This document shows positions 1 to 10,133 of a stretch of DNA of 11,489 nt, piece by piece (position 1 is the stretch's first letter; each line of letters opens with the position of its first letter). The notes below the pieces were generated by a model, which saw only the letters and a program-made list of their open reading frames with translations, had not been told where the DNA came from and did no database searches. Where the stretch lies: positions 1 to 11,489 of the forward strand of contig CAWBHS010000046.1 of NCBI GenBank assembly GCA_963788655.1. Direction: 5' to 3'. The translations under genes were made by a program, and so were the position numbers. The stretch comes from an uncultured Verrucomicrobiae bacterium (GTDB taxonomy: Bacteria > Verrucomicrobiota > Verrucomicrobiia > Limisphaerales > JAFGQR01).

Positions 1-1
1 C

Positions 2-205
2 TCACGCGAGCGGTAGCCATTTGGAAAGCGGTGGCAACTCCTCCATCGTCTTCGCTTTCTGCATCTGCTCCGCAACCCAGTCCGGGTGACTCCACATCGT
101 AGCGGCATTCGGATAGGAAACTGCGAGCCAAATGATGAACAGCAGGAAAAGAATCGCCGCAATAAGATTCGCCCGGAACAGTCTTTTGGTCGAATTGGAT
201 TTCAC
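2..205 (-). CDS. Integron cassette gene (cassette 2): small hypothetical protein with one N-terminal hydrophobic segment; may extend beyond the window if the 3' end is frameshifted
   Basis: GTG at 205-203 lies 12 nt after the reconstituted core GTTAGGC, a typical cassette gene position. Translation MKSNSTKRLFRANLIAAILFLLFIIWLAVSYP... includes a TM/signal-like stretch. The ORF-track ATG at 235 lies inside intron domain VI, so it is not the start. Confidence 0.55.
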   Translation of the reverse strand: MKSNSTKRLFRANLIAAILFLLFIIWLAVSYPNAATMWSHPDWVAEQMQKAKTMEELPPLSKWLPLA

Positions 206-219
206 GAGGGGTAACCCGC

Positions 220-294
220 ACCGGGTAGGCGTCATTGGTTACCCGCCGACGCCCCCCTAAGAACCGTACGTGAAAGTTTCCCTTCATACGGCTC
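220..294 (-). ncRNA. Group II intron catalytic domain V (294-261) and domain VI with branch A
   Basis: DV is GAGCCGTATGAAGGGAAACTTTCACGTACGGTTC (34 nt, AGC triad, GAAA loop). DVI is GGGGGCGTCG...TGACGCCT-A-CCC with the bulged A 7 nt from the 3' end. Confidence 0.93.
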
Positions 295-375
295 AAGCCT
301 TTCAAAGGCCGTCGTTGATCCGGACGACCCAGCTATCAGAGTTTTGGCCATAATAACAAGCCTTTCGAGAGCCGA

Positions 376-1866
376 TTATACGCCCCCGGTCGCCCGAGGC
401 GAGCCGTTTCCTACGGGGTAACTGCGCCAGGCAAAGCACCGACGCTTCTCGAAATACTTGACCCAGTCCGGATGATAAGGATTGGCCTCGGCTTTCACTT
501 TAATGTGCCGATCCATCACCGTCTGGAGCAGATTCCGCAGCTTCAACAATCGCGGCTCGCCGTCTCGGGTGCGAACCCAAGTCGAAAAGCAGCCTTTGCC
601 AGCGGCGGGATAATATTTGCGGCGTCGCCAAGTCCAGGATTTCTTGGGATGCCGCCGTTTCATCCATCGCCAGAGCAGGTCGTTCACTTACCGATCAACC
701 TGATAGAATGCTTCTCGGGCGACGACATGGCGGTGGTAGTTGGCCCACCCCCGCAGGATTGGATTTAACGTTCGGATTAACACTTCGGTCGCCAGACCCC
801 GACCTTGCCGAATGCACTGTCGGGCTTTCTCCCGTATCCCGGCAATCGCCTTGCGGGAGGGAGTGATCCGAAGTTTCTTTCCCCGTTTGCGCAGGTTCTG
901 TCCCAGGAAGTCAAAACCTTCCTCGATATGGGTGATCTTGGTCTTTTCCTCTGAGAGACTCAGGCCCCGTTCCTTCAGGAAGGAGGCGATCACCGGTTTG
1001 ACCTTGTCTTCGAGGGTTTCCCGACGTGCCGCCGTGACCACAAAGTCATCCGCATAGCGGATGAAGTTGACCTTGTCATGGCGCGGTCGGATCGCCGCCC
1101 GGATGGCGACTTCCAACCCATCGAGGGTCAGGTTGGCCAACAAAGGGGAGGCGATGCCCCCTTGCGGTGCTCCCGCTTCGGTCGGAAAGAGCCGACCTGC
1201 TTCCAGATAACCGGCGCGCAGCCATTTGCTCAGGATCTCGCGATCCATCGGGATGTGCTGGAGCAACCAGTCGTGGCTGATTTCGTCGAAACAGCTTTTA
1301 ATATCCCCTTCCAGAACCCAGACCGGCGCGTAGCTCTTGGCCAGTGCGTTGAAGCACTGCCCAATGGCATCGGCGCAACTACGGCCTTCCCGGAAACCAT
1401 AGGAGTTCTTGTCAGCGCAAGTCTCCGCAATCGGTTTCAAAGCCAAGGCATGGAGGGCTTGATGGGCGCGGTCAGTCATCACCGGAATACTGAGCGGCCT
1501 TAATTTGCCGTTCTTTTTCGGGATGTAGAGACGCCTCAGGGGTTGCGGTTGATAGCCGCGTTGTTTGAGGCGCGATACCGCTGCGAACTTTTGTGAATCG
1601 GTTCGCCAGACCTGTCCATCGACTCCGGGCGTGGCGTGTCCTTTGTTACTCGTCACCCGTTGAACGGCCAGTAATTTGGCCGCGCCCGAGTGCGTAAGAA
1701 TCCACTGCAGGGCTTTTGCCCGACCGTGGTCGTTTTCTCTGACCGCCTTGGCAATACGCATCTGCAGCCGTTTGACCGAGGCGCGCACGGATTCCCAGTT
1801 CAGGGCTTTCCATGCGGTGCCGCGACCGGAGGACGCACCAGTCGATCCCGAAAGATCAACCGTCAT
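376..1866 (-). pseudogene. ltrA: Group II intron reverse transcriptase/maturase (IEP), interrupted by one in-frame TAA at 690-688; no HNH endonuclease domain
   Basis: RT motifs TPGVDG, RRLYIPKKNGKLRPLSIP, SYGFREGRS, VLEGDIKSCFD, PQGGIASPLLAN and RYADD, plus maturase LNPILRGWANY. ORFs 688..1884 and 376..687 are in the same frame (GAT CGG TAA GTG AAC) and continue LLWRWMKRRHP...HIKVKAEANPY. Likely start is ATG 1866, behind a GGGGGAG RBS. Confidence 0.92.
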
Positions 1867-2115
1867 TTGCTTCTCCCCCTGCATCGGTTCTACCTATTCT
1901 CTTGCCAAGAAAGACCCGATCGAAGTGGGTCTATCCGATCCATTACAGACCGGTTTTTACTTTTTCGATCCTCTCAAAGCTGCTTCCCCTGAGCCGGCCT
2001 TGCGGTGGGCTTGCCTGGAGACCGTCCAGGCGGGATACCCGCAGCTTTTCCATGTTCCGCATTCATCACGAGATGGGTTAGGTCCACTCTGTACACCGGC
2101 GGTGCGCCATTCGCG

Positions 2116-2138
2116 TCGGGCCACGTTAGACGACCCGA
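2116..2138 (-). other. Intron domain I EBS1 stem-loop
   Basis: Minus strand TCGGGTCG-TCTAACG-TGGCCCGA forms an 8-bp stem with two G.U pairs. The loop CUAACG pairs 6/6 with the last six 5'-exon bases CGTTAG. Confidence 0.85.
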
Positions 2139-2428
2139 ACCTGACCGCTGGCCTTATTTTGGCCTGAGCCTTAAAACAGCCTCGTCTGGCTCGTTCCTCT
2201 GACGATGCTTGCGAGTGTTTAATTAGTTTGACCGTACCATCCGATTCTAGCGCCGCACCCGGATTGAGGCTCCCAGGCTGGCTACATTGTCGGGAAGGCT
2301 TCACACCCTGGACAGTAGCCTTGCGGCCGCCCGTCCAACGCATGCTTCCCTGGAATACCTGCCGCGAAAGGCAGGACTGAGTCAGGTTGCCCATGCTCAG
2401 CAGTGATGAATGCGACTTCATGTCACAA

Positions 2429-2532
2429 CTAACGACCAAGCTGAGCGACTGACATGAGCGCGCCGACGACATCCGATTGCAACCAAGACGCCGCCCGCGC
2501 TCATGGCAGTTCGCTCCAGCGTCTGGTTGGAC
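2429..2532 (-). other. Integron attC recombination site (about 106 bp when reconstituted), with R' split by the intron
   Basis: Minus strand order: R'' GTCCAAC (2532-2526), 5-nt spacer, L'' GCTGGAGC (8 nt, extra base), GAAC, long inner palindrome (ACTGCCATGAGCGCG...CGCGCTCATGTCAGT), GTC, L' GCTCAGC (2446-2440), 6-nt spacer, R' GTTAG (2433-2429) completed by GC at 219-218. The box asymmetry fixes the top strand as minus. Confidence 0.9.
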
Positions 2533-2686
2533 TGCGCTCGTTCCATGCGGTGATGGACTACGCGGCCCGAAACAACTGGAGCGAGCAATTGCTTGTGGAT
2601 GTCTGCAAGAAAAAGTTTGGCCGCGTGCGTCAAGGAGTTGGCGTGCTGCGTGAGAGTTACCGTTCGATGCTCGCCGCGCAGTCCAA
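2433..2686 (-). mobile_element. Integron gene cassette 1 (254 bp), apparently ORF-less
   Basis: Begins G|TTGGACTGCGC (2687-2676). Its attC begins with the exact 12-bp complement GCGCAGTCCAAC (2537-2526), as expected for the two halves of one cassette's R site. Only 148 bp lie between the two cores, with no convincing self-contained ORF. Confidence 0.75.
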
Positions 2687-2720
2687 CTATTATTATGCTA
2701 CCAGTGAACACATAATGAAC
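2681..2720 (-). other. attI-like primary recombination site
   Basis: Minus strand GTTCATTATGTGTTCACTGGTAGCATAATAATA-GTTGGAC: a GTTRRRY core preceded by an AT-rich degenerate L box (GCATAAT) rather than an attC hairpin. The core matches cassette 1 R''. Confidence 0.55.
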
Positions 2721-2999
2721 TTGCCAAGTTGTTGACAACAGGGCACCAAGGAAAAACAAGGTTGAAGCTGAGGCGATACCACGAATGCCGGCGGTAATTC
2801 GGTTGCGGCATCAGCCCTTTTCCACGGAACAATCCGATTGTAGCTGGCTCCGGCACTCCATTCGCTTCCGGCCCCGGGGGCCCACCAGGGCGTGTCGGCC
2901 TCAACCCAATACCAAGCATTCTCAGCATGGGGATTCTTTTATCAACAAGTAATGGATCGGTCACGGTAAAAAGAGCGGCGCTGGGTAAGCTGGCGCCCG

Positions 3000-5792
3000 T
3001 TACTTCAATTCCGCCAGGGCCTCCAGCAGCTCGGTTTCGATGCGTTTCTGCCGCTTCGCCTCCAGTATTTTCCGGCCGTCGTTGGCGGTGACGTAAAAGG
3101 TGTCCACGGCGGCGCCTTTCTCGGTGAGGATTTTGGCGAGGGAAATGTTGAGCTCCAATTCCGCCAGCGCCCGGGAGATGCGGAACAGCAGACCCAGGTG
3201 GTCTTCGGTTTCGATTTCGATCACGGTTTGGGTGGCGGACGCCGTGTTGTCAATCTGGATGGTGGTGGGCAGTTCCTCCCCGGCCAAGCCAAAGTAGAGG
3301 GGGCGCCCGGGGCGTTTTCCTTGGATGAGCCGCTCCAGGTTGAAGTCTTCGTCCGTCAACGCCGCGGTGAGCAGCCGCCCAAATTCCTGGCGCTCGTCCA
3401 CGGTCACGAGGCTGCCGGTGCGGGCATCCGCCACGGAGAAGGTGTCCAGGACGACTTTATCGGTGCGCGTAAAGACTTCGGCGCCGAGGATGTTGATGCC
3501 GGCGGCACTGAAGGCGCAGGTGATCTGGCTGAACAGGCCGGCGCGATCCCAGGTGCAGATTTTGGCCTTGGAATAGCCGCGGTCCCGTTGGTGGTGCCAG
3601 GTGATCACCGGTTCGAGCCCCCGTTTGCCGTCCGCCAATTGCCGGCGCATGAATCGCCGCACTTGGAGGAGATCCTTGGCAATGTCTTTCACACTGTGGA
3701 CGGTGAAATAGCGGGGGGGCAGGTCCTGGAAATGGCCGGCAATTTCCTCCGGCGTGACCCGCCGCTTCACGGTCCGCCCCACCTGTTCCGCCAGCAGTTC
3801 CCGGTGCCGGGTTTCGGCGGCGATGAATTCCGTGCTGCCGGCAAGAACGCGGGCCGACTTTTGGTGCAACTCGAGCAGGAGCGTGTTCTTGAAGCCGTTC
3901 CACAGATTGAGGCTGGTGCCCAGGGAATCGGCCAGCGTGTGCAGGGTCAGCATCCGGAGGTTTTCCAGGGACTGCACTTGGGCGGCGAAATGCCGGATCA
4001 CCGCCGGGTCGTCGAGATCCCGGCGTTGGGACACTTGCGCCATGGTGAGGTGCTGTTTCACCAGCAACCGCAGGATGTGCGCGGTGCTGCCGTCCAGGCC
4101 CAGGCGCCGGGCGACGCGCAGGGCAATTTCGCCACCCGCTTCCGCGTGATCTCCTTGATTCAGCGGCTTGGCCGAATCGTGCAACAGCATCGCCAGATAC
4201 AGCACAAAGGGCCGGGCCACTTCCGAGAAATATTCCGCGTAATATTTGTACGGCGGTTCGACGGCTTCCCAGACCCGGTCCAGTTGCTCGAGGCAATGCA
4301 GCGTATGTTCGTCGGCGGAATAGACATGATAGAATTCGTGCTGCACCAGGCAGGTGAGTTTGCCGAACTCGGGCAGGTATTTTCCCAAGAAACCCACCTC
4401 GTGCATCGTCCGGAGGATGCGCCCCACGTTCCCCCGCTGGTTGAGAATTTCCAGGAACGTCTCGCGGATGTGTTCATCCTTGAGGAAGGCGCGGTCCACC
4501 AGCGGCAATTCCCGGCGAATGAGCTGCGCCAGATCCGGGTGCAATTTCAGTCCCCGCTGCTGGGCATACAGGAACACGCGCATCAGCCGGCGCGGCTGGT
4601 CGCGAAACACTCGCAGGCTCGTGTAATGAATCTGCCCACCCTTGATTGTGAAGCCGTCCAGCAATTGTTCCTTCTCCGGGCGAAACGTGCCGGTGAGGAA
4701 CTTGCCCAGCGCCGCTAAGCGCCCGCGTTGCGGCAGCAACGCCAGCCGCTCCTCCAGGGTGCGGGTAATCAGGTACAGATAGCGTAAATGCACGTACAGA
4801 TCGCGCATGAAGCGCTCGAGGCGCCGGCTGGGGGAACGCTCCGCGTAGCCCAGTTCGAGCGCCACCGCCGGTTGCAGCACGCGCTGGAGCACGTCTTGTG
4901 AGCGGCCGACCTGGTAGTGCATTTCGTTGCGCACTTGCAGCAAGAAATCATACGCCCGCTCCAATTGTTTGCGCTCGGCCGGGGTGATCAACTCCTGTTG
5001 CTCCATTTCGGCCAGGGTGCGGGTGCGGTATTTAAAGAAGGCCATCCAGTGCAGGTTCTGATAATCGCGCAAGCCCCCGCAACCGTTTTTGACGTTGGGC
5101 TCCTGCATCGTCGGCGAATCACCAAATTTCATCCGCCGGGCGGTTTGATCTTCAATCCGCGCGTTGAGGTATTGTTCTTCGTGTCCTTCCACGCATTTGG
5201 CAATGACCGTCCGCTGGAACTTCTCGAACAGCACCTGGTTGCCGGTGATCAGCCGCGCCTCGATCAACGAGGTCTTGGTTTCCATGCTTTTGGGAGTCCG
5301 CGCATCGTTCGAGTTCTCCACGCAATCCGCGACGCTGCGCACCGAATGGCCGACCTTGAAGCCCAGGTCCCATAGCGGCAGCAGCAACCCGTCCATCAGC
5401 TTGCGCAGCGCCGGCAACGGTTTGGTGTGATAAGCGACCACCTGGCCTTCGTGCAGGAACATGAGGTCCAGGTCGCTGTACGGACACAACTCCGCGCGGC
5501 CGTAACCGCCCAACGCCACCAGGGCCAACGGGGGAAATTCTTTTTGCGCCTGGACCGAAAGCTCGTTGCGCGCCGTGTCCCACAAATGGCACAGCAGCAA
5601 ATCCACCATCGCCGCCCGGCTCTCGCACACGTCCCGTCCACCCGCGCCCGCCCGATGGTGCATCTTCAATCGTTGGGATTCGACCTTGAGGTAATTCTTG
5701 AATTGCGCCAACCGTTGCGCCGCCGTTTGGTCCGGCGAGGCCACCAACCGGGACTTCGCGCTTTTTTCAATCTTTTCAACCAGTGTTCGCAT
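3000..5792 (-). CDS. glnD: [Protein-PII] uridylyltransferase / uridylyl-removing enzyme GlnD (about 930 aa)
   Basis: NTase motif ALGGYGRAELCPYSDLDL, EPNVKNGCGGLRD, HD domain (YSADEHTL...LLHDSAK) and two C-terminal ACT domains (DRAGLF, DHLGLLF...AVDTFYV). Start moved to ATG 5792 (MRTLVEK) because the longer N-terminus runs through repeat DNA. Confidence 0.96.
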   Translation of the reverse strand: MRTLVEKIEKSAKSRLVASPDQTAAQRLAQFKNYLKVESQRLKMHHRAGAGGRDVCESRAAMVDLLLCHLWDTARNELSVQAQKEFPPLALVALGGYGRAELCPYSDLDLMFLHEGQVVAYHTKPLPALRKLMDGLLLPLWDLGFKVGHSVRSVADCVENSNDARTPKSMETKTSLIEARLITGNQVLFEKFQRTVIAKCVEGHEEQYLNARIEDQTARRMKFGDSPTMQEPNVKNGCGGLRDYQNLHWMAFFKYRTRTLAEMEQQELITPAERKQLERAYDFLLQVRNEMHYQVGRSQDVLQRVLQPAVALELGYAERSPSRRLERFMRDLYVHLRYLYLITRTLEERLALLPQRGRLAALGKFLTGTFRPEKEQLLDGFTIKGGQIHYTSLRVFRDQPRRLMRVFLYAQQRGLKLHPDLAQLIRRELPLVDRAFLKDEHIRETFLEILNQRGNVGRILRTMHEVGFLGKYLPEFGKLTCLVQHEFYHVYSADEHTLHCLEQLDRVWEAVEPPYKYYAEYFSEVARPFVLYLAMLLHDSAKPLNQGDHAEAGGEIALRVARRLGLDGSTAHILRLLVKQHLTMAQVSQRRDLDDPAVIRHFAAQVQSLENLRMLTLHTLADSLGTSLNLWNGFKNTLLLELHQKSARVLAGSTEFIAAETRHRELLAEQVGRTVKRRVTPEEIAGHFQDLPPRYFTVHSVKDIAKDLLQVRRFMRRQLADGKRGLEPVITWHHQRDRGYSKAKICTWDRAGLFSQITCAFSAAGINILGAEVFTRTDKVVLDTFSVADARTGSLVTVDERQEFGRLLTAALTDEDFNLERLIQGKRPGRPLYFGLAGEELPTTIQIDNTASATQTVIEIETEDHLGLLFRISRALAELELNISLAKILTEKGAAVDTFYVTANDGRKILEAKRQKRIETELLEALAELK

Positions 5793-5888
5793 CCGGGCGC
5801 AAGGTAGGCCGCAAAGCGGCTTTGGCGCAAGGGAACAGGGGCAGGAGGGGAGAAAGTGTGAAGGGGCAGGACAGAAGCTTTGAATGGG

Positions 5889-6036
5889 AATGACCAATGG
5901 CCAAGGACCAATGACCAGAGAATTCCCAAGAACCAATGATTAGCGAGCCGGCAGCCCGCTTTGTGAAATTGACATTGGTGCTTGGGGTTTGGTCCTGGGC
6001 ATTCTTTGGGATTTGGTTCATTGAACATTGGTCATT
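5889..6036. repeat. Inverted pair of degenerate heptamer arrays (AATGACC)n ... (TTGGTCA)n
   Basis: Left arm 5889-5939 is AATGACC AATGGCC AAGGACC AATGACC AGAGAATTCCC AAGAACC AATGA. The reverse complement of the right arm (5973-6036) is AATGACC AATGTTC AATGAACC AAATCCC AAAGAATGCCC AGGACC AAACCCC AAGCACC AATG. Confidence 0.8.
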
Positions 6037-6080
6037 GTGCTCAAGCCCTGTTCATTGGCGTGGCTCCCCTGCATTCGTTT

Positions 6081-6104
6081 CTGCCGGCGAGACGCCGGCA
6101 GCAC
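6081..6104. repeat. REP-like GC-rich palindrome
   Basis: CTGCCGGCG-AGA-CGCCGGCAG-CAC: perfect 9-bp stem with a 3-nt loop, intergenic, no U tract. Confidence 0.55.
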
Positions 6105-6118
6105 GCTGGTTTTCTTCC

Positions 6119-6146
6119 GCAACCTTGTGGGTTGGCCGGTTTTTGA
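6119..6146 (+). promoter_or_regulatory. Putative ECF-sigma autoregulatory promoter
   Basis: GCAACCTT-N10-CGGTTTTTGA ends 15 nt before the sigma ATG. The same motif and spacing recur at 6775-6802, and the AAC -35 core is typical of ECF promoters. Confidence 0.6.
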
Positions 6147-6161
6147 TAGATTTCTCTCGGA

Positions 6162-6773
6162 ATGTCCGCGGATATCGATCCAGATGCCCAGTTGATGCTG
6201 CGAGTCAAGCGAGGTGATCGCGAGGCGTTCACCACGCTGGTGGACAAGTATAAACAACCAATCATGAACCTCGTCTATCGAACCGTCCATGATTACACGG
6301 AAGCAGAGGATCTGGCTCAACACGTTTTTCTTCAGGTATTTAAATCGGCGCACCGGTACCAGGTGACCGCCAAGTTCTCCACCTGGCTGTTTACGATTGC
6401 CCGCAACTTGTGCCTCAACGAAATCCGCCGGCGTTCCCGGCATCCGGCCGAATCCATGGACGAAACCACCGGCGACGGCGACGACCAACCCCTGCGGCAG
6501 ATCGAGGACAACCGCGCCTTTTCCGCGCCGGACGCCCTGCTGCAGACCGAGTTGGAGGACAAGATCGAAGAAGCCCTGGCCGCGTTGCCGGAAAAGCAGC
6601 GCACGGCCATCACGCTTTGCCGACAAAACGAGTTGTCTTACGAGGACATCGCCAAAGTGCTGGATTGCTCGCTGTCCGCCACCAAATCGCTGATTCACCG
6701 GGGGCGGGAAACCCTCAAAGAAAAGCTTAAGCCCTATTTGGCCACCGGCGCCTGGCGGGAGAACAATCATTGA
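6162..6773 (+). CDS. ECF-family sigma-70 factor (RpoE/SigW-like), 203 aa
   Basis: Region 2 DAQLMLRVKRGDREAF...AEDLAQHVFLQVF...KFSTWLFTIARNLCLNEIRRR; region 4 ALAALPEKQRTAITL...LSYEDIAKVLDCSLSATKSLIHRGR. Confidence 0.95.
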   Translation: MSADIDPDAQLMLRVKRGDREAFTTLVDKYKQPIMNLVYRTVHDYTEAEDLAQHVFLQVFKSAHRYQVTAKFSTWLFTIARNLCLNEIRRRSRHPAESMDETTGDGDDQPLRQIEDNRAFSAPDALLQTELEDKIEEALAALPEKQRTAITLCRQNELSYEDIAKVLDCSLSATKSLIHRGRETLKEKLKPYLATGAWRENNH

Positions 6774-6774
6774 T

Positions 6775-6802
6775 GAAACTTTATGCCAATCACGGTTTTA
6801 AA
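6775..6802 (+). promoter_or_regulatory. Second putative ECF-type promoter, upstream of the anti-sigma gene
   Basis: GAAACTTT-N10-CGGTTTTAAA, with spacing identical to the 6119 copy. It also reads as GAAACTT-N16-TTAAA, resembling sigmaE-type GGAACTT-N16-TCAAA. Confidence 0.6.
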
Positions 6803-6816
6803 TGGGAAGGAACGGT

Positions 6817-7341
6817 ATGACTGAGCGTGAATACAATGACTTGCGGGAAATCAGTTGGCGGCGTCCGCTTCACCCCGCGGAAGAAGCCCAAGTGCAAACC
6901 TATCTGGCGTTGCACCCCGAAGCCCTGTCCGACTGGGAGGCCGAGTCCGGTCTAACCCATCTGTTGGACCAGACCGCGGATGTTCCGCTCGCTTCGAATT
7001 TTACCGCGCAGGTGTTGCAGGCCCTTGACCGCGAGGACGCCGCGCCCGCGCGAAGGGCGATCCTCGCCCGGTGGTGGCAGCGTTGGCTGCAAAACCCGTT
7101 GCCGCGTCTGGCGTGGGCCACGGCCATTCTGCTGGCGACGTTTTATGGCTACCAGCAATACCAGCATCATGAGCAGGAACAACTGACCAAAGGACTGGTC
7201 CAGTTCTCGCGAGCCAGCGGCCTGAATGAGCCAACCGTCTTCCAGGACTTTGACGTCATTCAACGATTGGGGCAGGTTCCGGCTCCGGCGGATGAGGAAC
7301 TGTGGCTGGTGTTGAGCAAAGCCCCCGCCCGGTCCAACTAG
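6817..7341 (+). CDS. Putative membrane-anchored anti-sigma factor
   Basis: Directly downstream of the ECF sigma. Helical N-terminus (LHPAEEAQVQTYLALHPEALSDW...VPLASNFTAQVLQAL), one TM segment (LAWATAILLATFYGY) and a short C-terminal domain. ATG 6817 has an AAGGAA RBS; the alternative start is 6802. Confidence 0.7.
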   Translation: MTEREYNDLREISWRRPLHPAEEAQVQTYLALHPEALSDWEAESGLTHLLDQTADVPLASNFTAQVLQALDREDAAPARRAILARWWQRWLQNPLPRLAWATAILLATFYGYQQYQHHEQEQLTKGLVQFSRASGLNEPTVFQDFDVIQRLGQVPAPADEELWLVLSKAPARSN

Positions 7342-7347
7342 ATTTTC

Positions 7348-8319
7348 ATGGAGCCACTTTACGGCATTCTTTATTTGGCCTTCAGCGCATGGAGCACCGC
7401 CAATTGGGTGCCCCCGCCGCAGCCGGTGCCAGGTTCATTTACGCCCAATGGACCGCCGGCGCCGCCGTCCTTCACGGTGCCCCAGCCGCCGACCGCGTTC
7501 TTCCGCGAATTGCTCGTGGCCAATGCCCAACAACGACACGAATTGCTGGCTAAACATCCGCCGGGCGAGCAACGTTTCCTGATCTCCAAAGTGCAGTACT
7601 ACGAATCCCTGTCTCCGGAACAGACGGAGGAGGAACTGCGCGCGCTGGAACTGCGCTGGTATCTCGCTTTCCTGATGCGCCAACCCCCGACCAACCGGAC
7701 GATCATGCTGAAAGATCTGCCGGAGAAAGATCGTCGGCTGGTGGAAACCCGGCTGGCGTTTTGGGACCGGCTCTCGGCCGACCTTCAAGATTCCATTCTC
7801 AAGAACGAAATCGCCATCCGCGTGCAGTACAGCCTGCCGCAGTTTGTAAAAACCCTCACCAATCTGCCGCCGATTCACCGTCGCAAGATTGCCGACGACA
7901 TTGCCCGGTGGAAGGCCATGCCGGCCAAGGAACAGCAGGTGGTTTATTGGAGTTACAAGCAGTTGTTCGAGTTGAATGAACCGCCCATGCCCCCGGGCGC
8001 GGTGCCCCCGAACGCGATGCCGCCGCCGTTGCCGGTGAACACCCTGTTGGTGCAGTTCAAACAACTCCCCTCCAGCGAGCAAAGCGACTGTCTGGCCAAT
8101 TTTCAACGATTCAAAGAACTGCCGCCGACGCAACGCGAACGCTTCGTCAAAGCCGCCCAGCGCTGGCTGAACATGAGCGAGGCCGAGCGGCAAGCGTGGC
8201 GGCAAGCCGTCAAGAGCGGCGCCACTCCGCCCTTGCCTGCCCGCCCGCCGATGCCACCAGGCTTTGTCCCTTCCCCGCGACCGCGCAGCCAGCCTCTTTC
8301 GCTGGACACCAACAAATAG
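7348..8319 (+). CDS. Proline-rich, probably exported helical-repeat protein (DUF3106-like)
   Basis: N-terminal hydrophobic stretch, Pro-rich linkers and repeated W/F-xx-L/M-P/S-xxxQ/R units (WDRLSADLQ, WKAMPAKEQ, FKQLPSSEQ, FKELPPTQR, WLNMSEAER). Starts 6 nt after the anti-sigma stop. Confidence 0.7.
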   Translation: MEPLYGILYLAFSAWSTANWVPPPQPVPGSFTPNGPPAPPSFTVPQPPTAFFRELLVANAQQRHELLAKHPPGEQRFLISKVQYYESLSPEQTEEELRALELRWYLAFLMRQPPTNRTIMLKDLPEKDRRLVETRLAFWDRLSADLQDSILKNEIAIRVQYSLPQFVKTLTNLPPIHRRKIADDIARWKAMPAKEQQVVYWSYKQLFELNEPPMPPGAVPPNAMPPPLPVNTLLVQFKQLPSSEQSDCLANFQRFKELPPTQRERFVKAAQRWLNMSEAERQAWRQAVKSGATPPLPARPPMPPGFVPSPRPRSQPLSLDTNK

Positions 8320-8403
8320 CCCTGTTGTTTCAGTCCCAATTCAATCGAAGCGCCAGCGTCAAGCAAGGCAGTGCTCCCGCTGCCGTAACGATTCAGTCAA
8401 AAA

Positions 8404-8551
8404 GGGGAGCGCGCCCGCCCCGGGCGCCGTGGTTGGCGCCTCGCCAACCACTTTCGAGGATCCCGAGGGATTCACTATTCAGTGGCTGCTCAGTCGCCGG
8501 GCCAATCGGCGAGGGCGCCGGTTGGCAGCGCCCGAGGCGGGCGCGCTCCCC
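8404..8551. repeat. 148-bp REPIN/MITE-like element with 24-bp terminal inverted repeats and two inner hairpins
   Basis: GGGGAGCGCGCCCGCCCCGGGCGC (8404-8427) matches the reverse complement of GCGCCCGAGGCGGGCGCGCTCCCC (8528-8551) at 23/24. Inner hairpins are GTGGTTGGCG-CCT-CGCCAACCAC and CCAATCGGCG-AGGG-CGCCGGTTGG. Confidence 0.8.
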
Positions 8552-8833
8552 CAACACAATTGCATGGATACGCCTTAGCAAATCAACCACCGGAAGGTGA
8601 GTGTCACCCATTTTGCAACGGCGGGCGGTCCCTCCGTTGGGAATGCGCCGGCTTGCCCTGTTGCTGCCGAGCCGATATTACGTCCAAGTTAAGTCCCGCC
8701 ATGTCCCAGACCATGCCGTGCCGTTTTGCAGGCTTGAGTTGCATCCAGTCGCCCCAGCATGAAAAGTCCCAAAAGGACGTATTGACCTTTCGGAGATTTT
8801 CTAGTGTTTTATTGCGCTTTGGCGCTCAGCGAT

Positions 8834-10133
8834 ATGAAGCTTACAAATGAGATTGTGCCTCCACCGCCGCCACCACCGATGGTGCAGAACACCTTCGCAG
8901 CGGTGCGAGAATTGTTCAGCCAGTTTGTGGTCCCCAGTTATGGGCGATTCGATCTCGCCTTTACGCGGGGTGCGGGAAGTTATTTGTGGGACGTGAACGG
9001 CAGGCGCTACCTCGATCTCGGCGGCGGCATTGCCGTGTGCGCACTGGGGCATGCGCATCCCGCGATTACCGAGGCGCTGGTGGAACAGTCGCAACGGTTG
9101 GTCCACATCTCGAACCTGTATTACCACGAACCGCAGGGACGCCTGGCGCAGGCAATCGTCCGGTTGATCGGACCGGGCAAGGTATTTTTCTCGAACAGTG
9201 GCGCCGAAGCCAACGAGGGTCTGTTCAAACTGGCCCGCAAGTTTGGCCATACCGAAGGCCGCTTCGAGGTTCTGACGGCGGTCAACTCCTTTCACGGACG
9301 CACGCTCGCGGGCATCGCGGCCACCGGCCAGGACAAAGTGAAGAAAGGCTTCGAGCCAATGATGGCCGGATTTCGGCACGTGCCCTTCAATGATCTTGCG
9401 GCCATGCGCGACGCCATTTCACCGGCAACGGCGGCGATCCTGATTGAAGGCATCCAGGGGGAAGGCGGCATTACGCCAGCCACTCCGGAATACCTGCTGG
9501 GCTTGCGGGCGCTGTGTGACGAAAAGAAACTGCTGCTCCTCATGGACGCGGTGCAGTGTGGGCATTTTCGCACCGGCCGATTTCAGAGTTTTCAGCGGAT
9601 TTTGGAAGGCGTGCCCGGTGGCGACCAATTTCTGCCCGACGGCATTTCGATGGCAAAATCCATGGGCGGTGGCTTCCCGATGGGCGCGTTCTGGGTGCGC
9701 GACCAACATGCCGATCGTGCTCGGTCCGGGCACGCATGCGACCACTTACGGTGGCACGCCGCTGGCGTGCGCGGTGGCGCTCAAGATCCTGGAAGTCATC
9801 GAGCGGGATCACCTGGCCGACCACGCCCGCGCCATCGGCGAGTTCATCAAGAACGGATTGGATCAACTGGCACAAAAGTATCCGCCCTGCATCCGTCGCG
9901 TACGGGGAATGGGCTTGATGCTCGGGTTTGAAATGGCGTCGGACATGCCAGTGTTCCGCGGCACCGGCAAAGCGCCCTCGCTCCAAATGGTCAACCGGCT
10001 GCACCAGGCGGGCGTGCTCACCATTCCGGCGGGCTTGCACGTGGTGCGTTTGCTGCCGGCGTTGAACCTACGGCAGGCCGAAGCCGAGGAGGGATTGAAC
10101 ATCATCGAGTCGGTGATGGCGAAATTGGCTTGA
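8834..10133 (+). CDS. argD: Acetylornithine aminotransferase (class III PLP); one apparent +1 frameshift near 9716
   Basis: GAGSYLWDVNGRRYLDLGGGIAVCALGH, FSNSGAEANE, SFHGRTL, EGIQGEGG, DAVQCG and AKSMGGGFP, then in the next frame LGPGTHATTYGGTPLACAVA...VRGMGLMLG...VVRLLPAL. Removing one base at about 9716 gives DQHADVLGPGTH. Adjacent to argF. Confidence 0.92.

Follow-up and report, generated by a model that had tools for sequence, protein, structure and literature searches.

The contig CAWBHS010000046.1 of an uncultured Verrucomicrobiae bacterium (assembly GCA_963788655.1), a stretch of 11,489 nucleotides referred to below as the window, carries on its minus strand a group II intron that splits the R' core of an integron recombination site, attC. 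Our analysis indicates that this CL1/IIB1 intron very probably retrohomed into the top strand of the attC at GTTAG|GC, its target being chosen mainly by base pairing between exon-binding site 1 (EBS1, CUAACG) and intron-binding site 1 (IBS1, CGUUAG) at the end of the 5' exon. Comparison with related introns leads to a wider proposal, to which we give even chances: that a phylum-spanning CL1/IIB1 clade has fixed a YUAAC EBS1 reading the top-strand GTTRR of attC, and probably of attI; that cassette arrays are its home; that it uses at least two insertion registers (after R' base 5 or 6), a Bacteroidales sister clade inserting after base 4 of another repeat; that its ends were swapped from G1...A to U1...G; that it rides with the next cassette, moved by the integron integrase as well as by its own reverse transcriptase (RT); and that with it group II introns evolved attC targeting independently for a second time, by pairing and not by hairpin. 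An earlier note on this DNA had placed an intron at 2428-220, splitting GTTAG|GC, had described it as CL1/IIB-like and not class C, with a 34-nt domain V and an AGC triad, and had proposed that it occupies the attC top strand in cassette orientation and reaches attC sites by EBS-IBS pairing, CUAACG matching CGTTAG at 6/6 positions; the results given below bear these points out, coordinates included.

The features on which the argument rests are listed here, R1 and R2 being two attC covariance models described below.

2428..220, minus strand: group II intron of 2209 nt, IIB1-type, with ends 5'-UUGUGAC...CCUACCCGGU-3' (Rfam and boundary alignment to relatives)
2376..2251, minus strand: domain I core (RF02012, 63.2 bits against a gathering score of 34; Rfam)
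2129..2124, minus strand: EBS1 CUAACG in a domain I hairpin loop, ..UCGUCUAACGUGG.. (domain I alignment, covariation)
1884..376, minus strand: open reading frame (ORF) of the intron-encoded protein, with RVT_N, RVT_1 and GIIM (Pfam), lying in domain IV
294..261, minus strand: domain V, 34 nt, beginning with GAGC, which holds the AGC triad (Rfam alignment)
257..220, minus strand: domain VI, with a bulged A at 226, 7 nt before the 3' end (Rfam alignment, sequence)
2532..2429, minus strand: attC up to the intron (the 5' exon), from R'' through the first 5 nt of R', GTTAG (R1, R2, folding)
2532..2526, minus strand: R'' core GTCCAAC, which fits RYYYAAC (sequence; R1 positions 1-7)
2517..2510, minus strand: single-base bulges G2517 and A2510 on the 5' arm (R1 alignment, consensus structure)
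2434..2429, minus strand: IBS1 CGUUAG, whose last five bases are R' positions 1-5 (sequence, loop alignment)
219..218, minus strand: GC, the last two R' bases (GTTAG|GC) and the first of the 3' exon (sequence, 3' boundary)

All RNA landmarks of the window copy are intact and above the Rfam thresholds; domains V and VI are matched together by RF00029 (296..220, minus strand), for which the gathering score is 40 and the match 63.9 bits. In the alignment to relatives, the 5' end (UUGUGAC from 2428) shares its columns with GUGCGAC, UUGCGAC or UCGCGAC, and the 3' end (CCUACCCGGU to 220) with their ..CCCGGU, ..CCCGAU or ..CCCGAC. The first and penultimate nucleotides of group II introns contact each other. 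Both ends could be read for 46 distinct introns of loci L001-L079. Of the 19 that begin with U, 18 finish in GU, and the 27 beginning with G all finish in AY; the association of first-base U with penultimate G (2428 and 221-220 in the window), and of first-base G with penultimate A, looks like covariation of this contact. As the same pairing of ends recurs in the relatives, the unusual U1...G ends of the window intron are no error.

The intron-encoded protein, compared with all PDB chains, scores 489.5 bits with the T.el4h maturase (6me0_C), against 139.5 bits with LtrA and 104-129 bits with class C (IIC) RTs. Among plasmid proteins, an intron RT annotated as ltrA on pO157 of E. coli O157:H7, which we infer from its location to be EcI5, shares 54.9% identity with the window protein across 99% of the length of the latter; both T.el4h (Th.e.I3) and EcI5 (on pO157) are described as IIB1 introns with CL1 reverse transcriptases (PMC8643678). 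With its 34-nt domain V and AGC triad, its protein similarity to T.el4h and pO157, and its low scores with IIC RTs, the window intron is, on these sequence features, CL1/IIB1-like and not class C; neither a IIC protein nor a short domain V with a CGC triad was found in it. Pfam search detected no endonuclease (En) domain in the window protein. The proteins of relatives begin at a Met corresponding to window 1866, and among the matches listed, which include more than 8000 metagenomic homologs, there are proteins 81-94% identical to that of the window, most of them full length (P0002-P0012, 490-502 aa).

On the exon side, removal of the intron re-joins R' (GTTAG|GC) from 2433..2429 and 219..218, and the whole attC from 2532..2429 and 219..218, the insertion point lying between R' bases 5 and 6. 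The order of elements is GTCCAAC, a spacer, an imperfect stem of 23-25 nt with two bulges, a loop, the return arm, TTGGTC, and GTTAG|GC; the re-joined flanks fold with dG -37 kcal/mol. The integron integrase crosses over at G|TT, here 4 nt upstream of the insertion point, so that the intron would belong to the downstream cassette.

Whether such sites are attC was judged with the covariance models. R1 was built from eight uninterrupted attC sites of L002 and L003 only; the site at L002 4621-4734, the 3' end of which aligned badly, was excluded from training. Its consensus (alignment A3) has the R-box, an unpaired spacer and two single-base 5'-arm bulges, and 17 of 29 pairs show compensatory changes. 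In the window, R1 matches 2532..2427 over its full length with 53.3 bits (E 2.9e-10, 675 kb searched); both bulges align with those of the model, whose final two positions extend over the first two intron bases; to this model, these bases together with the 5' exon still resemble the R' box. R1 also matches the interrupted sites of L002, L003, L013, L027, L012, L009, L075, L010 and L026, as well as additional uninterrupted sites at other loci, and every one of these matches is on the intron strand. The broader model R2 (19 hits outside L002 and L003) gives the window attC 55.9 bits. At E <= 0.1 it has 53 hits, 50 of them on the intron strand, while in the remaining three a strong palindrome is read weakly in reverse; all 53 are in 17 of the 35 window-clade sources (287 kb), against none in 45 sources (389 kb) with related CL1 introns of other EBS1. 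In the class 1 integron of pKJK5, searched as a control with filters off, R2 finds the aadA11 site (46.6 bits) and the dfrA1 site (37.3 bits), both on the cassette-gene strand, the only other hit below E 0.001 being one 17-bit reverse read; the window attC scores above both of these canonical sites. Because of this control, the models can be said to recognise canonical attC, and their forward direction to be the top strand. By model match, fold and direction, the window site is a real attC occupied on its top strand, with the intron co-oriented with cassettes, as the earlier note had read it; insertion into the bottom strand opposite to the cassettes, the trait of class C introns in attC (IIC-attC), was not seen, the attC match being on the intron strand.

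A simpler finder, based on AAC..GTT closure and folding energy, was also tried and rejected. Applied junction by junction, its energy threshold accepted 4 junctions out of 65 and also 3 background GTT positions out of 197, and when relaxed it gave many spurious matches in G+C-rich DNA. The strict version did reveal the textbook-like arrays of L003 and L002, the two loci closest to the window; the finder as such was too unspecific, and covariance models were therefore used.

The EBS1 loop lies within domain I about 300 nt from the 5' end, as expected for IIB1/CL1, and CUAACG is complementary at all six positions to the 5' exon end CGUUAG. For 48 distinct loops, the mean EBS1-exon pairing score is 5.5, against 3.64 +/- 0.16 with exons shuffled, and none of 2000 shuffles scores as high. 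NAAC is present in 27 of these loops, and covariation persists in the 21 without it. The loops GACUUUU, GUCACGG and GCCUGUUU (L001, L024 and L028) match the exon ends AAAAGTC, CCGTGAC and GAACAGGC, respectively. Compensatory changes are seen in L027 (CGAACG with CGTTCG), in L010 and L045 (CAUAAC with GTTATG) and in L013 (CCUAAC with GTTAGG), and pairing length among the introns is 5-7 bp. Since the loop covaries with each intron's own 5' exon end, CUAACG is a genuine EBS1.

In a tree of 77 rows, the window belongs to a clade of 32 rows with a Shimodaira-Hasegawa-like approximate likelihood ratio test (SH-aLRT) value of 96. Its hosts are Verrucomicrobiota, Thermodesulfobacteriota/delta-proteobacteria and other phyla, and its EBS1 is kept as (C)YUAAC(G). 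Upstream sequence of 100 nt or more is available for 26 junctions of the clade, six more being too near a contig end. Twelve of the 26 end in an R2 hit (window, L002, L003, L009, L012, L013, L021, L026 twice, L027, L034 and the second copy of L075), and eight end in GTTNN(N) with no R2 hit (L006, L008, L015, L018, L022, L032, L045 and the first copy of L075). Other attC hits lie in the flanks, seven in L022 and three in L006, and beyond the junctions the clade has 38 further co-oriented R2 hits. As far as sequence can tell, cassette arrays of several phyla thus repeatedly harbour members of the clade, oriented as the cassettes are.

The clearest case is L003, from a Verrucomicrobiae metagenome-assembled genome (MAG), with 69% protein identity to the window; it is the closest genome copy among the best 80 of 560 stretches and a complete integron. 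Its intI (3563..2532), on the strand opposite to the intron and divergent from the array, scores 476.9 bits with TIGR02249 (cut-off 265) and is 54.7% identical to IntI1. Nine attC hits follow on the intron strand at 4033-9969, the second of which is split by the intron. In seven of eight cassette intervals the intron-strand ORF is the longer one; the cassette ORFs start a few bases past R', and their N-termini are hydrophobic. An array or integrase context was also found in L022, L012 and L026. In L075, an integron integrase (3133-4272; TIGR02249, 495 bits) has the same orientation as the intron, one copy of which (4358) lies 86 nt past the integrase stop, behind AAGTTAGA; this copy may be an insertion in the attI of an integron with inverted integrase.

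Evidence of movement comes from one delta-proteobacterial MAG, in which near-identical introns occupy seven junctions (L006, L007, L008, L012, L013 and L075 twice) that differ in both their 5' and 3' flanks. Two of these copies interrupt ordinary genes, a PAS-domain gene (L007 3324-4376) behind GGTAGG and a gene for a Xer-like recombinase (L008 3684-4376) behind GTTCCG; these insertions are ectopic sites resembling IBS1. Judged from such flanks, the clade relatives show repeated independent insertions, not mere cassette shuffling. At least two registers are used: insertion after R' base 5 (GTTAG|, GTTAT|, GTTCG|) in the window, its Verrucomicrobial kin and many others, and after R' base 6 (GTTAGG|C, GTTATG|C) in the delta lineage. 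In the Bacteroidales clade, insertion follows CGTTR| of another repeat, about 130 nt long and ending in CATAYYG..CGTTR, which is present in 30 copies at 13 loci, all on one strand and none on the other, within L051-L068 of one MAG (e.g., L052 at 4365, 8492, 9620 and 10406). In 12 of the 30 repeats, CGTTR is followed immediately by a CL1 intron. R2, run with filters off on four Bacteroidales loci, gave at best 7.6 bits (E about 10) at a junction; the repeats could represent a divergent type of attC or belong to some other family.

Several observations weigh against targeting of attC by pairing, either for the window or for the clade. First, the genes beside the intron in the window are housekeeping ones, namely glnD and genes for a class III aminotransferase and an ornithine/aspartate carbamoyltransferase (OTCase) N-domain. 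Domain search and R1/R2 detected neither intI nor, at E <= 0.1, a second attC in the 11.5 kb of the window. With a single attC, no intI and such neighbours, an integron context for the window copy is therefore not demonstrable. No cassette array or integrase was seen alongside the attC within the window, which ends 219 nt beyond the intron, so that an array may lie further downstream. Second, the protein frame contains one in-frame TAA (690..688, minus strand) in the GIIM/maturase region. Third, neither alignment-column scans nor per-intron searches gave a covarying block for EBS2-IBS2 or EBS3-IBS3; the single candidate from the scans is GGUCAA at 2233..2228, pairing with UUGGUC. Fourth, 14 of the 26 clade junctions lack an R2 hit, and six of them do not end in GTT. 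In this last group, L005 ends in CTTTAG, L001, L004 and L044 have a different EBS1, each matching its own exon, the L050 intron sits inside another intron copy, and L007 is the insertion in the PAS-domain gene. Finally, the attC models are home-made, R2 being trained on window-clade loci; the relatives come from a scan of one genome per species, which yielded 599 stretches, 560 of them confirmed, the best 80 being kept as 79 loci; and the tree is from a quick search with SH-aLRT support only.

The nonsense codon makes mobility and splicing of the window copy by itself doubtful unless the protein is supplied in trans. The copy may even be dead, a scar in a decaying attC beside glnD that no longer splices or moves, and this we regard as a serious possibility, if on balance not the one we would choose. 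It would account for the TAA, which stands where the consensus of 26 relatives has Y, and for the lone attC with no intI within 11.5 kb. It fits less well with the intact RNA and with a frame in which the TAA is the sole nonsense codon and no frameshift occurs; moreover, if the cell also contained a protein like the 81-94% identical metagenomic ones, that protein could serve in trans. Probably, the window copy either obtains its protein in trans or is in decay.

The absence of a convincing EBS2-IBS2 pairing in either kind of scan also bears on how the site is recognised. The ribonucleoprotein could read the folded top-strand hairpin in the manner of class C introns, with EBS1 pairing secondary; the intron does lie where the hairpin ends on its 3' side, and IIC introns are described in a like position after terminators and bottom-strand attC (PMC7923331, PMC4424553). 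We consider this unlikely, given a covarying EBS1 pairing of 5-7 bp and the presence of the same intron at two non-hairpin gene sites with IBS1-like ends. The protein, besides, is of the CL1 type, and the CL1 members whose study is described in PMC8643678 home by base pairing.

Still less probable is that the intron does not aim at attC at all and is only cassette cargo shuffled by the integrase. An insertion 4 nt downstream of G|TT would indeed travel with the downstream cassette, and the 5' flanks of the copies vary as shuffling would yield. Against this, the 3' flanks of near-identical copies vary too, at seven junctions of one genome, two copies are in ordinary genes behind IBS1-like sequences, and EBS1 changes together with the exon end, as in CGAACG/CGTTCG. 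An ordinary homing intron whose home site merely resembles attC by chance, as one attC-like site among housekeeping neighbours with no integrase might suggest, is already disfavoured and highly implausible in view of the E value of 2.9e-10 given by R1, a model built from other genomes, of the hits at 12 clade junctions out of 26 and at another 38 co-oriented sites, against none in 389 kb around other CL1 introns, and of the published parallel UHB.I2 (PMC7923331), as described there.

The target CGUUAG includes the GTT and the purines after it, which are common to all attC and attI sites. Under retrohoming guided by EBS1, the intron RNA would enter the DNA strand by reverse splicing just downstream of GTTAG, and a replication fork would prime the synthesis of cDNA; this route is suggested by the absence of an endonuclease domain, being the one established for group II introns of that kind (in part in PMC4424553). 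Given the cassette orientation of the intron, it would then be co-transcribed with the array and splice out, restoring the transcript.

Two further features of the window adjoin the target.

5936..3000, same strand as the intron: GlnD-type uridylyltransferase (Pfam domain match)
2..205, minus strand: downstream small ORF of 67 aa with a GTG start and a hydrophobic N-terminus (sequence; no Pfam family)

The 67-aa ORF starts 14 nt past the junction, is co-oriented with the intron and is positioned like the cassette ORFs of L003. When the intron is removed, a frame through attC (2429-2759, minus strand) runs on in-frame into this ORF (2-219), probably by coincidence, since the cassette ORFs of L003 begin after R'. 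Between glnD and attC there is an antisense ORF of 93 aa (2454-2735, plus strand; 60 aa counted from a Met at 2553), which has no Pfam family and the first codons of which overlap attC. A hairpin past this ORF, at about 2785..2811, was seen by eye only and is absent from the listing of the terminator scan; terminator and promoter scans of window positions 1..3100 gave nothing bearing on the intron target.

Some relatives are found in other surroundings. A CL1 sister group from Clostridia MAGs (L036, L046, L070, L072, L077) sits at a single conserved gene site, ..TGG|CAGAC..AAGCAGAA.., and is a case of classic gene-specific homing, in contrast to the attC clade. Tandem introns, in which a copy starts directly or 6 nt after the 3' end of another, were observed in L050 (724), L076 (5644), L063 (8749-8755) and L073 (4371-4377). 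Both plasmid relatives, on a Klebsiella plasmid and on pYKBL021, are in the plasmid backbone and neither is in an integron; at the only readable junction of the two, the Klebsiella intron stands behind ..CAGCTA and not GTTAG.

Targeting of attC has so far been linked to class C introns. Of the three target rules that Zimmerly and Semper (2015; PMC4424553) give for bacterial group II introns, in the parts of the review available, attC insertion is tied to class C, into the bottom strand and antisense, with homing as the rule for all other lineages; insertion of IIC-attC introns into the bottom strand is likewise reported by Léon et al. (2010; PMC3001079). These introns (S.ma.I2 and relatives) resemble that of the window in lacking an endonuclease domain and in recurring in attC, according to the same two sources. 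They differ in their class C RNA and protein and in inserting at TTGT/T of the R'' region on the bottom strand, in the orientation opposite to that of the cassettes, and they are described as combining an EBS1 pairing of 3-4 bp with stem-loop recognition (PMC7923331), whereas the window intron has a 6-bp EBS1 pairing, a 34-nt domain V with AGC, a CL1 protein and a top-strand position at R'. EcI5 (pO157) and T.el4h/Th.e.I3 share with it the protein lineage and the features of the RNA subgroup, and their base-pairing-guided homing is described in PMC8643678; unlike it, they start with GUGYG and home to one gene-specific site.

One published intron is closer. Sonbol and Siam (2021; PMC7923331) described UHB.I2, which comes from a cassette array of the Tanatar-5 soda lake metagenome, is of type IIB1 and encodes a CL1 protein of 500 aa. 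According to the accessible parts of the paper, it has the ends 5'-UUGCG..GU-3' and cassette orientation and is located 'immediately after an attC'; supplementary Table S1 places the IntegronFinder attC at c(7295..7364) and the intron at c(5096..7296), which gives an overlap of 2 nt. Its authors noted poor exon conservation and no EBS3 bulge. The window intron shows the same characters, i.e., a CL1 protein of about 500 aa, ends of the form 5'-UUGYG..GU-3', cassette orientation and an attC match that likewise extends over the first two intron bases; the two proteins have long motifs in common, as judged by eye only. The window differs from UHB.I2, as far as the latter is described, in its Verrucomicrobia-like context, its adjacency to glnD and its broken ORF. 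The window element is therefore a slightly decayed further case of a kind with one published example, and the intron type, which the earlier note could not confirm to be unreported, is in fact already in print. Outside the class C literature, this was the sole relevant paper found in open-access papers and bioRxiv. In its accessible parts, it deals with one full intron from one hypersaline sample and, unlike the present analysis, contains no EBS1-R' rule; nor was a lineage-wide rule of this sort found in the same body of literature, although subscription journals could hold more.

Taken by itself, the window brings modest news, namely the second case, partly decayed, of an oddity already in print, located at a lone attC beside glnD. 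What appears to be new, from the comparison of loops and exon ends, is a conserved EBS1 reading the R' core across a whole CL1 clade, which is apparently not in print. If the proposal is true, intron and cassettes would share transcripts in a sense-strand IIB lineage that recognises the universal GTTRR core by base pairing; the intron could splice out without silencing the genes downstream, and could ride with the cassettes. It could also bring a reverse transcriptase into integrons, which bears on the old question of the origin of cassettes, and it would provide a natural IIB scaffold with an EBS1 directed at every integron.

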